Shown: positions 5,558 to 15,655, counted from the first letter of the stretch. The stretch is 20,453 bases of DNA from a virus (IMGVR_UViG_2695420718_000008), one strand, 5' to 3'. A program made the numbers and translations. The notes: generated by a model from the letters alone, not told the origin.

Positions 5558-6328
5558 ATGGAAACCGTATTTGACGCACTGAAAGCAATGGGAAAAGCCA
5601 CATCGGTAGAACTGGCCGCGCGACTTGATATCAGTCGTGAAGAGGTTCTCAACGAGCTGTGGGAACTCAAAAGAAAAGGCGTCGTTGATAAAACTGGTCA
5701 CACCTGGTTTCTGGCTGGCGAAGGTGAATCCCGGGTAACCGAAGAGCGGCCAGTAAAATCTGAAGCACAGGATATGCTGACCGGGGAGGTCGAACAAAAA
5801 GTTACCGCAGACATGATGATTGAGTTTATCGGTCAGGATGGGGCTAAAACGTGTGAGGAACTGGCGGGTAAGTTCGGTGTCAGTACTCGCAAGGTTGCTT
5901 CCACGCTGGCGGTGGTAACCGCAACGGGGCGGCTGGCACGCGTTAATCAGAACGGTAAATTTCGTTACTGCATGCCGGGCGATAATTTACCAGCAGAGCC
6001 GAAAGCCGCGCTGGTAACGGAAAGTGATGGTAAGGCCTTTCCTCAGCCAGCAGGTGCTGCGTTACCAGTCCGGGAAGCCGCAACACAGGAAGAAATTAAA
6101 ACAGAAACTGTGGCGGACATTGTGCAGCCGTTGCCATCGTTTACCGAAACGCAAGCAGATGAGCTGATTTTTCCGTCCCTTCGCAGGGCAAACCTGGCGC
6201 TGCGCAGGGCGAAAAGTGATGTTCAGAAGTGGGAGCGAGTCTGCGCCGCGCTGCGGGAGCTGAACAAGCACCGGGATATTGTTCGACAGATTACTGATTC
6301 TTCCCGCCGTGTTGTATCGGAAAAGTGA
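5558..6328 (+). CDS. hypothetical nin-region protein with two winged-helix-like segments
   Basis: ATG at 5558 with GGAGG 8 nt upstream (track starts at an upstream TTG); segments [30 protein letters not shown] and [22 protein letters not shown] look like wHTH motifs. Confidence 0.5.
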
Positions 6329-6343
6329 TTGCCGGAGGCGCTT

Positions 6344-6769
6344 ATGGCAAAAGTATTTACACAAGAAGAGCGGGAAAAAATTAAAGGGCAGGTTGTTGAA
6401 CTTGTACGTCTGAGCGGTCGCGAGACGTTGCGGCAACTGGAAGCCAAGACAGGTGCGACAAGATATCTGATGAGTGTTCTCGCCAGAGAGCTGGTTGCCA
6501 GTGGCGATGTATACAACTCTGGTTACGGGTTATTCCCGTCTGAACAGGCGCGTAAGGACTGGCAAAATGCTCGCAAAAAACTCTCAAGGGCAAAGGTGAA
6601 GAAACCTGCAGTGGTTGATCCGGACCTTATCTGGTCGTTACCAGACGGCGAAATACGCCGCTACGACAGGCGCCTGAATATAATCTGTCGCGAGTGCCGG
6701 AAGAGCGAAGCTATGCAGCGTGTACTGGCATTTTATCAAGGAAATGTTAGGTATTTTAGACGTTACTAG
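6344..6769 (+). CDS. hypothetical protein (141 aa)
   Basis: ATG at 6344 preceded by GGAGG; product MAKVFTQEEREKIKGQVVELVRLSGRETLRQLEAKTGATRYLMSVLAREL...; follows the previous gene after a 16-bp gap. Confidence 0.5.
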   Translation: MAKVFTQEEREKIKGQVVELVRLSGRETLRQLEAKTGATRYLMSVLARELVASGDVYNSGYGLFPSEQARKDWQNARKKLSRAKVKKPAVVDPDLIWSLPDGEIRRYDRRLNIICRECRKSEAMQRVLAFYQGNVRYFRRY

Positions 6770-6922
6770 ATTAAAGAGCATTAGTTCAGATGTGAATTGA
6801 CATTTTCATGGCGCAGGGTAGAGCCAGCGTGGTTGTCCGCTTTGCGTCAAAACCAGATATTACCAGATTTAGACATATATTCCCGATAGCCCTGCTCTGA
6901 TGCTACACTCTGTGCTATTTTC

Positions 6923-7609
6923 ATGACCCCAATAAAAATATTTATGACTATTGCTGATTTCAAACGGCCTAAATTGGAGCTCCCAAACGGGGCAAACAAA
7001 CTACTACTGCACTCTTGCTGTGCTCCATGTTCCGGTGAAGTGATGGAGGCGCTTCAGGCCTCGGGAATCGACTACACCATCTTTTTCTACAACCCGAACA
7101 TTCATCCTCAGAAAGAGTATTTAATTCGTAAGGATGAAAATATTCGCTTTGCTGAACAACACGGCGTGCCGTTTATCGATGCTGATTACGACACCGACAA
7201 CTGGTTTGAACGTGCCAAAGGAATGGAATGGGAGCCTGAGAGGGGGATCCGTTGTACCATGTGTTTTGACATGCGTTTTGAGCGGACAGCGTTGTACGCT
7301 GCTGAAAATGGTTTCAGTGTGATCAGCAGTTCACTGGGCATTTCACGCTGGAAAAATATGCAGCAGGTTAACGAGTGTGGGCGGCGAGCTGTTGCGCATT
7401 ATCCGGGTATGGTGTACTGGGATTATAACTGGCGCAAGCAGGGCGGCTCGTCCCGTATGATTGAAATCAGCAAGCGCGAAAAATTCTATCAGCAGGAATA
7501 TTGTGGCTGTGTGTATTCTCTGCGCGATACCAATCTACACCGCAAATCTCAGGGACGCCCTCTTATCAAAATTGGCCAACTCCACTACGGAAAAGAAGAG
7601 AAGGAGTGA
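6923..7609 (+). CDS. QueH-like protein (DUF208, epoxyqueuosine reductase family), prophage cargo
   Basis: 228-aa product with N-terminal [14 protein letters not shown] motif and further Cys residues (CTMCF, CGCVYS), consistent with my recollection of the QueH family; start may be the downstream ATG at 6944. Confidence 0.5.
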
Positions 7610-7739
7610 TTTTATGGATCACCTTTCTGATTGATTTCATATTGGCGAGGTGACGTGAGTTAAGTAGAATGGCTGCGGGTGCTTGAGGCTATCTGTCTCA
7701 GGCATGAACACTGAAAGGCAGATAGAGAAAAGCCCCAGT

Positions 7740-7810
7740 TAACATTTCGCGTCCTGCAAGACGCTTAACATTAATCTGAGGCCCAATCTATGTCTCACAA
7801 ATGTAGGTTA
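7740..7810 (-). ncRNA. predicted Sok-like antisense RNA of the hok locus (position inferred, not sequence-verified)
   Basis: hok-family loci encode an antisense RNA complementary to the leader around the mok start; a minus-strand TTGCCT-N17-TAACCT candidate promoter lies at about 7847-7819. Boundaries are guesses. Confidence 0.25.
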
Positions 7811-7846
7811 GCCTCTTACGTGCCGAAAGGCAAGGGGAAGCAGGCT

Positions 7847-8002
7847 ATGAAGCAGCAAAAGGCGATGTTAATCGCCCTGATCGTCATCTGTTTAACCGTC
7901 ATTGTGACGGCACTGGTAACGAGGAAAGACCTCTGCGAGGTACGAATCCGAACCGGCCAGACGGAGGTCGCTGTCTTCACAGCTTACGAACCTGAGGAGT
8001 AA
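7847..8002 (+). CDS. hokD: Hok/Gef-family type I toxin (HokD/RelF-like)
   Basis: 51-aa product MKQQKAMLIALIVICLTVIVTALVTRKDLCEVRIRTGQTEVAVFTAYEPEE matches remembered HokD; an in-frame upstream ATG at 7790 (MSHKCRLASYVPKGKGKQA) is mok-like; the leader 7676-7790 resembles the hok mRNA 5' end (GCTTGAGGCT...). Confidence 0.85.
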   Translation: MKQQKAMLIALIVICLTVIVTALVTRKDLCEVRIRTGQTEVAVFTAYEPEE

Positions 8003-8070
8003 GAGACCCGGCGGGGGAGTAATCTCCCGCCACCTCTGATGTGCCAGGCATCCTCAACGCACCCGCACTT

Positions 8071-8093
8071 AACCCGCTTCGGCGGGTTTTTGC
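8071..8093 (+). terminator. rho-independent terminator after hokD (copy 1 of a duplicated terminator)
   Basis: AACCCGCTTCGGCGGGTTTTTGC: stem CCCGC/GCGGG, loop TTCG, T-run. Confidence 0.65.
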
Positions 8094-8103
8094 ATTAGTC
8101 TGG

Positions 8104-8132
8104 TTGACAAAAATAGAAAAATGCGAAAATAT
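8104..8132 (+). promoter_or_regulatory. putative sigma70 promoter for the two-gene cassette
   Basis: Perfect -35 TTGACA (8104-8109), 17-nt spacer, weak -10 AAATAT (8127-8132); 35 bp upstream of the 8168 ATG. Confidence 0.3.
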
Positions 8133-8167
8133 GTGGTTTACGAATTCTAAAAAAAGCGAAACTTGAA

Positions 8168-8818
8168 ATGAATGAAAATCAGTTAGCTCCTTGTTGGGAA
8201 TTTCAACCTTATCTTGCTGAAAACTATGTTCGCCACTTGTTGGCGGAGATCGCTAACGTACTTGAGCAGCTGTACTATCATAAGCACGCATTAGACAGCA
8301 ACTGGTCTGAAGGTGTAAGGGCTTATGATTGGGTCAGAAATCATCTTATTCAAAATGAAGATGCAATTCCTGGCCTTGAGATGATTTCCAAGGGGTTGGA
8401 CTATGTAGTTGCTTTAAATAAAGTTCCGCTACAATTTACCAAAGATTGCATTAATAACCCCAAAAAGAAACATCGTCTGCGTCGAAATAAAGTAGAGTAT
8501 GAGCAGCTCTCATTGTTTGGTGATGTTGAGGCTGAGCAAGATATTACATGGCGAGTCATAGCTGAGCCTTTTTTATCCGAAGAGGGCGATGGTGAATTAG
8601 AGTCCACACTGCCTCGTTGGGAGGTAGCTCTTGTTGGATTTAATACTTATGGTGCTCAGATTAGTATAGTTTCTCATCAATCTACAGCATCGATGCCGCT
8701 TATGCCTCTTGATTATAACACACTCCCTGACGAAGCGGAGATTAATAAGGTGCCTCTTCGTCGGCGTACGAAGGATAAAGATTTGGATGTGAGCAGTGAT
8801 GGAACATCAGGTGAATAA
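8168..8818 (+). CDS. hypothetical protein (216 aa), first gene of the AT-rich cassette; candidate effector/toxin partner of the downstream HTH-peptidase
   Basis: Track ORF; product MNENQLAPCWEFQPYLAENYVRHLLAEIANVLEQLYYHKHALD...; low GC; 3' end overlaps the start of the next gene by about 20 nt. No family recognised. Confidence 0.6.
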   Translation: MNENQLAPCWEFQPYLAENYVRHLLAEIANVLEQLYYHKHALDSNWSEGVRAYDWVRNHLIQNEDAIPGLEMISKGLDYVVALNKVPLQFTKDCINNPKKKHRLRRNKVEYEQLSLFGDVEAEQDITWRVIAEPFLSEEGDGELESTLPRWEVALVGFNTYGAQISIVSHQSTASMPLMPLDYNTLPDEAEINKVPLRRRTKDKDLDVSSDGTSGE

Positions 8819-9902
8819 CTTCACTGAGTATCGGGGTGATAAGCTCAAACTAGCGAGAATGGCTGTTGGGCTTTCTTGTGAAGAGTTAGCCGAAAAAATT
8901 GGCAAGACAAAGCAATTCGTTAGCAAACTGGAGAAGGGGTGCAGGCCATCGGAGCAATGTCTTGAGTTAATATCTTCAGCGCTTATGATTAAGTCCAGTT
9001 TTCTTTTTACTGAACGAAAATACGCTCTGGAAAGTGATGTCTGCCATTTTCGGAGTAAGAAGTCCAGGACTCAAACGCTGACTAATAGTGTATTGGCCAG
9101 GGCTGAGATTCTTAATATTATAATTTCTGCTGTTGAAGGTGAAATCGAATTTCCTGACGTTAACATACCGGAGCACCCAGGGGCTGAATTACTTACTCCG
9201 AATGATATTGAGCGAGTGGCAGAAGATTGTCGCCGTGCCTGGAATTTAGGTCTTGGCCCTATATCATCAATGGTTAAATTGGCGGAGAGTTTAGGGGTAA
9301 TCGTTGCGCATGTTACGGGAGTCGATGATCGTGTTGATGCTTTTACTGTTCACAATAACAGGCCTGTTATCATCAGGAACAATGTTAAAAAAAGCATATG
9401 TAGATTTCGCTCTGATTTAGGTCATGAATTAGGGCATTTAGTAATGCATGAGGGCATAACGACAGGTGATAAACTTACGGAATCACAAGCCGATCACTTT
9501 TCGAGCGCCTTATTAGTTCCCAGGTTATCTTTCATTAAAGAATTTCCACGAATACGAGGTAAGCAATTCGACTGGAATGCTCTGGTTGAATTTAAACTTA
9601 GATGGAAAATCAGCCTTAAAATGTGTATTTATCGAGCCAGCGCATTAGGCTTATTGACCCAGGAACAGGCAAGAACTGGCTATATGCATCTTAATTCCAG
9701 AGGGTATACGAGAGTTGAACCTGGTGATGAACTTTTGCGCCCTGAAGAACCCGGCATGCTGGCCGAGGCGATTGAAATGCTGGATGATGCAACCTGGCTA
9801 AGAATTCTTATGAAAACTGGCTTGAGCCAAGATTTAATTCGTGAGTTGTTCTCCATCAACAGACCTATTACAAATCCAAGAAATATTTTCCAGATTGTTT
9901 GA
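8799..9902 (+). CDS. XRE-type HTH fused to ImmA/IrrE-like (COG2856, M78) zinc metallopeptidase
   Basis: N-terminal HTH-like segment LKLARMAVGLSCEELAEKIGKTKQFVSKLEKG; HEXXH motif HELGHLVMHE near residue 210; ATG 8799 (GTG 8796 also possible); overlaps the upstream gene. Confidence 0.7.
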   Translation: MEHQVNNFTEYRGDKLKLARMAVGLSCEELAEKIGKTKQFVSKLEKGCRPSEQCLELISSALMIKSSFLFTERKYALESDVCHFRSKKSRTQTLTNSVLARAEILNIIISAVEGEIEFPDVNIPEHPGAELLTPNDIERVAEDCRRAWNLGLGPISSMVKLAESLGVIVAHVTGVDDRVDAFTVHNNRPVIIRNNVKKSICRFRSDLGHELGHLVMHEGITTGDKLTESQADHFSSALLVPRLSFIKEFPRIRGKQFDWNALVEFKLRWKISLKMCIYRASALGLLTQEQARTGYMHLNSRGYTRVEPGDELLRPEEPGMLAEAIEMLDDATWLRILMKTGLSQDLIRELFSINRPITNPRNIFQIV

Positions 9903-14491: not shown

Positions 14492-14567
14492 GGCCCTTTA
14501 GCTCAGTGGTGAGAGCGAGCGACTCATAATCGCCAGGTCGCTGGTTCAAATCCAGCAAGGGCCACCA
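14492..14567 (+). tRNA. tRNA with CAU anticodon (Met or lysidine-dependent Ile2; ileZ-like position)
   Basis: Hand-folded cloverleaf: acceptor GGCCCTT/AAGGGCC, T-arm GCTGG-TTCAAAT-CCAGC, anticodon loop CTCATAA, encoded CCA 3' end. Confidence 0.8.
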
Positions 14568-14667
14568 TCACAAACCGCCATTAGCTTATCAGGAAGAGCA
14601 GACGACACGATAACAGGGTTGTTGGTGCGGGGGCGGGTCCCCGATGGCGGTCCATTATCGGTATTCA

Positions 14668-14744
14668 GCGTTGTTAGCTCAGCCGGACAGAGCAATTGCC
14701 TTCTAAGCAATCCGTCACTGGTTCGAATCCAGTACAGCGCGCCA
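14668..14744 (+). tRNA. tRNA-Arg (anticodon UCU)
   Basis: Hand-folded cloverleaf: acceptor GCGTTGT/ACAGCGC (one G-U pair), anticodon stem ATTGC/GCAAT with loop CTTCTAA, T-arm ACTGG-TTCGAAT-CCAGT, encoded CCA. Confidence 0.8.
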
Positions 14745-15208: not shown

Positions 15209-15655
15209 ATACATATCTGGATTATCACCGGTTACGGTAAAAAGTGATTGCTTACTGTTTTTGTGAATGGCATTGCAGCAGCCGGATAATGTCAGTGCTG
15301 GCTGACGGTGTGCTGGTGGCGGGTGTGGTGGTTGCTGCTTTCCCGTTGCTGAAAAAGAAAACGCCAGACTGTTAGCCGGGTATCAGTTAGCGGGAGAAAT
15401 TTTTAAATACTTCACAATTCAGGCGGTTGACTGTTGTCTGGTTTGCGGGGAGTTTGTTAAAAGAAACTGGCATGGTGAATCCCCCTGTGCGGAGGGGCAA
15501 TCAGCGAGTAGGTATATGGGATAATCGCGGATTCAGGTGCTGGTACTGAATTCACCGGGAGGCACCCGGCACCATGCAATGGCACATAGCGCCACTCTCC
15601 AGCCCCTCTCCGGAGGGGCTGTTTATATTGATTTTGTCAGATGTGAGTAAACTCC

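Follow-up and report, generated by a model that had tools for sequence, protein, structure and literature searches.

Why would a lambdoid prophage carry a gene for the last step of queuosine synthesis? In this pathway QueA makes epoxyqueuosine (oQ) on tRNA-Asp, tRNA-Asn, tRNA-His and tRNA-Tyr, and the reduction of oQ to queuosine (Q) is then carried out by QueG or by QueH (PMC9508795, PMC11130926). The question is raised by a stretch of 20,453 nucleotides of viral DNA (IMGVR_UViG_2695420718_000008), hereafter the window, in which a sequence-only reading had placed a QueH-like (DUF208) gene as prophage cargo and had suggested for it an auxiliary role in tRNA modification, or a link to 7-deazaguanine chemistry. 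We propose that the gene encodes a functional, captured QueH that is carried as a moron and that would give its lysogens a B12-independent route from oQ to Q, and we assign this reading as a whole a probability of about 0.6.

The window comprises the part of a Rac/Qin-like lambdoid prophage that holds the immunity, replication, nin, Q and lysis genes. Its first part contains the antisense RNA DicF (868-919, - strand, 77 bits), dicB, a repressor/Cro/YdaT module and DnaT-like and lambda-P-like replication genes; its middle holds DUF1627, DUF977, queH, hok/sok, RmrT/RmrA (Rosmer), DUF968, RusA and the antiterminator Q; and its last part consists of a DNA methylase, two tRNA genes, the small RNA STnc100 (15441-15630, + strand, 132 bits) upstream of a SASA esterase gene, a holin and a lysozyme. 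The two phage tRNAs, at 14492-14744 on the + strand, have the anticodons CAU (Ile in related genomes) and UCU (Arg), and related prophages have three such genes. None of the complete RefSeq E. coli genomes holds the entire window, and because the best of them covers only 87% of it (at 97% identity), the prophage is a mosaic variant absent from that collection. The features that matter for the argument are the following:

6329-6769, + strand: DUF977 (LygF-like) gene, the constant left neighbour of queH (PF06163, E = 7e-28)
6895-7611, + strand: minimal queH cassette (promoter-like block, leader and coding sequence), common to all prophage contexts
6901-6909, + strand: TGcTACACT, a candidate extended -10 element recognised by its conservation, 34 nt upstream of the ATG at 6944
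6919-6924, + strand: TTTCAT block of the conserved 5' leader, overlapped by the ATG at 6923
6944-7609, + strand: queH coding sequence, 221 aa plus stop (open reading frame, PF02677, PDB 7lc5, PGAP start)
7016-7030, + strand: CCAPC codons (Cys32, Cys33, Ala, Pro and Cys36 in the 228-aa numbering), the start of the invariant cysteine set
7677-8002, + strand: hok/sok type I toxin-antitoxin of the mokW/hokD type (Rfam RF01794 sok, 120.5 bits; HokD in related genomes)
8168-9902, + strand: Rosmer-type pair, RmrT-like (8168-8818) and RmrA-like HTH/M78 peptidase (8796-9902) (PADLOC, Pfam)

The product had been read as 228 aa long, and an open reading frame of that length does run from 6923 to 7609 on the + strand; the protein itself, however, is most likely 221 aa long and translated from the ATG at 6944. 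This start is preferred because it is the one chosen by PGAP, because the N-termini of 22 orthologues align with a Met at 6944 and because the ATG at 6923 is not conserved, the triplet at that position being ATT, ATC or ACT in the allele of the GPEC657 prophage and in chromosomal Enterobacter orthologues. The ATG at 6923 lies within a conserved non-coding block, TTTCAT(G/C/T), which is kept in the prophage and Enterobacter alleles, whereas the ATG itself is not (CATT, CATC, CACT), and it was rejected as a start. The internal ATG at 7043 (Met41) was also rejected, since a start there would delete the invariant CCAPC motif. A Shine-Dalgarno-like GGTGA precedes ATG 7043 and probably misleads gene callers; no recognisable Shine-Dalgarno sequence precedes ATG 6944. 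The protein translated from ATG 6944 is identical to RefSeq WP_000150294.1 (221 aa, named "epoxyqueuosine reductase QueH" by PGAP), and this exact sequence is present in the protein collection that was searched.

Judged by its sequence, the gene product is very probably a QueH enzyme. The Cys-rich motif that had first drawn attention to the gene is present in the translation at residues 27-37, and a search against PF02677 (QueH, formerly DUF208), the check put forward with the sequence-only reading, gave a full-length match (E = 1.1e-65; 221.5 bits with a cutoff of 23.5; profile positions 1-174 of 175). With phmmer, the structure of Thermotoga maritima QueH (TmQueH; PDB 7lc5) was matched over residues 27-203 with E = 7.8e-22, and all the T. 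maritima chains (7lc5, 7lc7, 9deu and the mutants 9dco and 9d86) were matched over the same residues with E of about 1e-21. Taken with the RefSeq name and the lambdoid context, these matches bear out the original identification of the gene as QueH/DUF208 prophage cargo. No NCBIfam model matches the window protein; the PGAP name must come from a rule other than NCBIfam, and the missing match is not evidence against membership of the QueH family.

Residue conservation was assessed in an alignment of 59 sequences, comprising the window protein and 58 diverse full-length relatives; the relatives came from 1.84 billion cluster representatives, all of which were searched (4775 matches at E <= 0.001), and the Thermotoga QueH chain was added to them. 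Six cysteines, C32, C33, C111, C114, C194 and C196 in the 228-aa numbering, are invariant in 59/59 sequences, and the other family-invariant residues (N59, E65, Y66, R69, E106, R110, K144, Q191, G195 and S199) are kept as well. Position 36, which corresponds to D13 of Thermotoga, is Cys in 55/59 sequences, including the window protein, and Asp in 4/59, so that CCAPC represents the common form and not a deviation. With C36 added to the six, the cysteine set CCAP[C/D] ... RCxxC ... CGC is complete, and the candidate ligand residues for a predicted [4Fe-4S] cluster and an adjacent metal ion are conserved across the alignment. An AlphaFold2 model built with 23 sequences was of moderate confidence (pLDDT 72.4, pTM 0.74); in a Foldseek search with this model, the top five PDB matches were all TmQueH (TM-score 0.67-0.73, normalised to the target), and the next were other tRNA enzymes of the adenine-nucleotide-alpha-hydrolase fold, such as TtuA and TilS.

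The window protein therefore resembles TmQueH in its full-length domain, with about 30% identity over residues 27-203, in the same six cysteines and in the adenine-nucleotide-alpha-hydrolase-like fold of its predicted model. It differs in having CCAPC where the Thermotoga enzyme has CCAPD, in the basic C-terminal tail of about 25 residues (HRKSQGR...IGxxYYG) that the enterobacterial clade has past aligned residue 203, and in being encoded by a prophage-borne gene and not at a chromosomal housekeeping locus. The family, reaction and protein name are all found in public databases and are already known as classification; the family assignment adds nothing new, RefSeq already naming the protein. 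Phage annotation is another matter. The PHROG family phrog_3217, labelled "unknown function", has a profile of 188 positions that covers residues 41-228 only, and because this profile starts at Met41, many phage QueH gene calls appear to be truncated at the N-terminus and to lack the CCAPC motif. Genes called from the internal Met41 need to be lengthened at the 5' end, and phrog_3217 and the "hypothetical protein" records of the HannyBb type can be annotated as QueH.

The two epoxyqueuosine reductases differ in how they are distributed in E. coli: queG is a core chromosomal gene, present in 5426/5426 complete genomes, whereas queH is accessory, its coding sequence being found in 995/5426 (about 18%, or about one in five). 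Because queG is universal, queH is in every case an additional epoxyqueuosine reductase gene in E. coli. It is nearly always chromosomal and present only once (1014 chromosomal places and 3 on plasmids), and its carriers include O104:H4, O157:H7 and ST131 strains. The earlier statement that enterobacteria normally use QueG thus holds for E. coli but not for many Enterobacterales, which have a chromosomal queH; copies with 79-90% identity occur in Enterobacter, Erwinia, Providencia, Proteus, Photorhabdus and Ewingella. In IMG/VR, 190 viral contigs encode queH. Among the cultured phage records, only that of the temperate Escherichia phage HannyBb has the gene, there labelled "hypothetical protein". 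Phage-database matches outside E. coli were not counted as phage carriage; they comprise "phage" records from Acinetobacter (330-380 kb), one of 282 kb from Staphylococcus and short contigs of Staphylococcus, Listeria and faecal origin, all of which resemble host or unverified sequence. A 2019 survey of viral 7-deazaguanine pathways by Hutinet et al. reported no homologues of QueA, QueG or QueH in the viruses analysed (PMC6884629). Our full-text literature searches returned no paper on phage or prophage QueH and no experiment on the window protein, and prophage carriage of queH appears not to have been discussed in the literature before.

QueG (E. coli yjeS/b4166) catalyses the same reaction as QueH in the same pathway, and every E. 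coli with queH has queG as well; the two enzymes differ in that QueG has an unrelated fold and cofactor (cobalamin and [4Fe-4S]). To our knowledge, E. coli does not synthesize the corrin ring de novo. The activity of QueG depends on cobalamin (PMC4646009, PMC5175355), and according to a passage in PMC6850298 that cites Frey 1988, oQ34 is found in bacteria grown without vitamin B12 in glucose-salts medium and Q34 in rich medium or when B12 is available. We propose that the window gene encodes a functional iron-sulfur, cobalamin-independent QueH that would convert oQ to Q at position 34 of tRNA-Asp, tRNA-Asn, tRNA-His and tRNA-Tyr; that the gene, along with the promoter region native to it, may have passed long ago from a chromosome of the Enterobacter/Erwinia type into a lambdoid lineage; and that it would now be carried as a "moron" directly downstream of the DUF977 gene. 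Because QueG needs cobalamin and E. coli cannot make it de novo, expression of QueH would allow a lysogen short of B12 to carry Q synthesis to its end, and after induction fully modified tRNA would be available to the phage as well.

That B12-independent Q maturation in lysogens is the benefit for which the gene was selected seems to us slightly better than an even chance. The wider statement, that a widespread lambdoid gene frees E. coli lysogens from B12 for the last step of queuosine synthesis and so brings about lysogenic conversion, is put forward more tentatively, at a little under even odds. The gut generally contains corrinoids, which may limit the size of such a benefit, and the structural model, with its pLDDT of 72, is only moderately confident. 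If the proposal is correct, prophage content and corrinoid supply would both influence the oQ/Q state of tRNA-Asp, tRNA-Asn, tRNA-His and tRNA-Tyr in natural E. coli, with possible effects on translation or on sensitivity to nucleases that target Q-tRNAs, and we would have a clear case of a temperate phage with a complete host-type tRNA-modification enzyme that bypasses the vitamin need of the host enzyme. It would bear on prophage tuning of host translation, on measurements of oQ/Q across E. coli strains and on corrinoid competition in the gut. The case is real but largely ordinary and does not represent a new kind of system; prophage queH is possibly a modestly interesting and easily testable instance of lysogenic conversion of tRNA modification.

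The source of the gene is indicated by its relatives. Apart from the prophage alleles themselves, which group in an unbootstrapped neighbour-joining tree as a single clade beside the Enterobacter-type and Erwinia sequences, the nearest ones are Enterobacterales proteins annotated as QueH. All six neighbourhoods of relatives, from Enterobacter, Erwinia, Providencia, Photorhabdus, Ewingella and a contig labelled Pseudomonas cerasi, are ordinary chromosomal and non-phage: the Enterobacter gene (88-90% amino acid identity) lies in the order LysR - GNAT - queH - csbD, that of Erwinia (85.5%) lies between purL and glrK, and that of Providencia adjoins tmcA. The Enterobacter and Erwinia genes have the same length as the prophage gene and the same 5' block, TGCTACnnT ... 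TTTCAT, but their genomic context is entirely unlike that of the prophage copy. Because the synonymous sites are saturated between prophage and chromosomal queH (pS 0.75-0.87, and 0.75-0.82 for the Enterobacter and Erwinia genes) and GC3 differs (0.53 for the prophage gene against 0.58 for that of Erwinia and 0.63-0.69 for copies of the Enterobacter type), the capture is old and the gene has adapted to phage/E. coli composition.

Within the prophages, the borders of the cassette at 6895-7611 can be seen by comparison with related phages. On the left, homology to GPEC657 starts at CTCTGATGCTACAC and homology to the queH-less phage mEp460 stops near 6846; on the right, homology to the queH-less phage Tritos picks up at 7612, just past the stop codon. 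Both mEp460 and Tritos have another gene at this site, which is reverse-oriented and encodes about 445 aa. The prophage queH thus resembles a lambdoid moron, being a discrete cassette between the replication and nin/Q modules, absent from mEp460 and Tritos, and having a promoter-like element of its own (a candidate). It differs from one in having no terminator of its own and in its GC content of 48%, which matches the surrounding phage. In IMG/VR, the DUF977 gene was found upstream of queH in 80/80 loci.

That the gene might have its own promoter had been suggested from a TTGACA element at 6797-6802 and a TACACT element upstream of the ATG, and this suggestion survives in part. Both hexamers are present, the second at 6904-6909, but they are 101 bp apart and the TTGACA lies in backbone common to the queH-less mEp460, so that the pair was rejected as one sigma-70 promoter; the TACACT remains plausible as part of an extended -10. 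The sequence CTCTGATGCTACAC does not vary among 8 prophage contexts, one of which, GPEC657, has unrelated sequence farther upstream. At 31-38 nt upstream of chromosomal queH stand TGCTACACT in Erwinia, TGCTACAAT in an Enterobacter-like metagenome contig, TGCTACCCT in Enterobacter and TGCTAAAAT in a further sequence (L017). A TGnTAnAnT block about 35 nt upstream is therefore common to prophage and chromosomal copies despite the saturation of their synonymous sites. Because this block, TGcTACACT in the window, is common to both, queH probably brought its own promoter along, the conserved 5' block fitting an extended -10 of the TGnTATAAT type. On this reading, transcription is predicted to start near 6916-6918, and expression would be independent of phage induction.

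Some observations count against expression of this kind. In a scan for the sigma-70 consensus, the + strand upstream of queH yielded no -35/-10 pair, the argument for the extended -10 being one of conservation. No terminator was found between the queH stop codon (7609) and hok/sok, the sole terminator-like site in 6300-8200 being at 8071-8088, and with no Shine-Dalgarno sequence at ATG 6944 either, expression might depend mainly on early-right transcription. A promoter-like site was found at 7642-7670 and possibly serves hok.

The alternative that survives best takes up these points. It holds that queH is an auxiliary of the lytic cycle, transcribed mainly in the early-right operon (replication to Q) after induction, and that it provides Q-tRNA for the synthesis of phage proteins and not a benefit to the lysogen. 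The gene has the same strand and position as the replication-nin-Q operon, no terminator is predicted among the DUF977 gene, queH and hok, the linkage to the DUF977 gene is constant, and queH occurs in a free temperate phage, HannyBb. However, the conservation of the promoter-like block with chromosomal orthologues argues for independent expression, no difference in decoding between oQ and Q is documented in the literature examined, and the phage's own tRNAs, Ile(CAU) and Arg(UCU), are not Q-tRNAs. We consider a mainly lytic role unlikely; it is compatible with a benefit to the lysogen, and the two are not mutually exclusive.

To the right of queH the prophages vary. Of the 76 IMG/VR loci with enough downstream sequence, 52 have hok/sok directly after queH, 21 have a restriction-modification pair (Dcm and NgoMIV-type), 2 have IS elements and 1 is arranged in some other way. 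In the window, hok/sok begins about 70 nt past the queH stop codon and belongs to this variable cargo slot, not to queH. The Rosmer-type pair beyond it was recognised by PADLOC (RmrT, E = 4.6e-25; RmrA, E = 6.2e-105), and the RmrA-like protein also has the Pfam domains Peptidase_M78 and HTH_3; the two open reading frames of the pair overlap, and PGAP names the products "hypothetical protein" and "helix-turn-helix domain-containing protein" (the latter an M78/IrrE peptidase). In O157:H7 strain Z563 (L014, 5872-7882) a DNA cytosine methyltransferase and an NgoMIV-family endonuclease lie to the right of queH, as they do in the IMG/VR locus L069, and in strain W2-5 (L021, 3896-5535) this place is taken by a KwaB-like (Kiwa) gene pair. 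The slot to the right of queH is a defence hotspot, and queH lies at its left edge.

This position invites the view that queH itself takes part in conflict: by shifting the oQ/Q state of the four Q-tRNAs it would alter their susceptibility to anticodon nucleases, and it would function together with the neighbouring defence genes. Colicin E5 and some retron effectors cut tRNAs of the Q family, and the gene does stand next to hok/sok and the Rosmer pair in the window, to Dcm and the NgoMIV-type genes in Z563 and 21/76 loci, and to the KwaB-like pair in W2-5. Yet PADLOC matched the queH product to 0 families, and queH was rejected as a member of a known defence system; the protein is 79-90% identical to housekeeping chromosomal QueH, with all catalytic residues unchanged; the constant linkage is to the DUF977 gene on the left, whereas the defence genes on the right vary; and the premise that oQ and Q differ in nuclease sensitivity is without support. 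We regard a role in conflict as very improbable.

Could the gene, then, be a functionless hitch-hiker, kept only through linkage to useful neighbours? It is redundant with the universal queG and has no evident Shine-Dalgarno sequence, as would suit a passenger. Comparison of the prophage alleles, however, gave dN/dS values of 0.04-0.05 at dS 0.10-0.44, a ratio of about 0.05 at a synonymous divergence of 10-44%, and the QueH protein is thus under strong purifying selection within the phage lineage. These values contradict a functionless passenger, at least 80% of the gene is covered in 985 of the 995 copies in E. coli, and all invariant residues are intact in the window protein; such an origin of the gene's persistence is, if anything, even less probable than a role in conflict. 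A captured, functional QueH remains the reading that we prefer.

We know of no epoxy-deazaguanine in DNA. The suggested link to 7-deazaguanine chemistry, according to which QueH would act on 7-deazaguanine bases in phage DNA, has only the chemical kinship of Q with these bases in its favour and can be set aside as scarcely credible, since the window and the related prophages, annotated from integrase to terminase, differ from DpdA-type systems in containing no DpdA/TGT-like transglycosylase and no preQ0-synthesis genes (FolE, QueD, QueE or QueC), and since the Q-specific enzymes QueA, QueG and QueH were not found in the viruses analysed previously (PMC6884629).

Two further observations concern the junction to the left of the gene. 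A 24-nt palindrome, GTCYGCT-N10-AGCRGAC, borders the variable slot that follows the DUF977 gene in a number of lambdoid phages, with a chance expectation of 0.07 per shuffled window. It was found in the window at about 6835-6858 (in degenerate form) and in related sequences (L012, 430-453 and 2231-2254; L011, 2744-2767; L002, 6343-6366; L019, 2914-2937; L017, 6813-6836); it flanks the Tritos cargo gene on both sides, and in L017 it precedes, by about 200 nt, a queH that looks chromosomal and encodes a product with 90% identity. The palindrome may be a recombination boundary or a REP-like element. In prophages of the HannyBb/KY208 type (L002, 6191-6397; L019, 2735-2920), the DUF977 gene and queH are separated by a truncated methyltransferase fragment, a sign of earlier cargo turnover at this junction.
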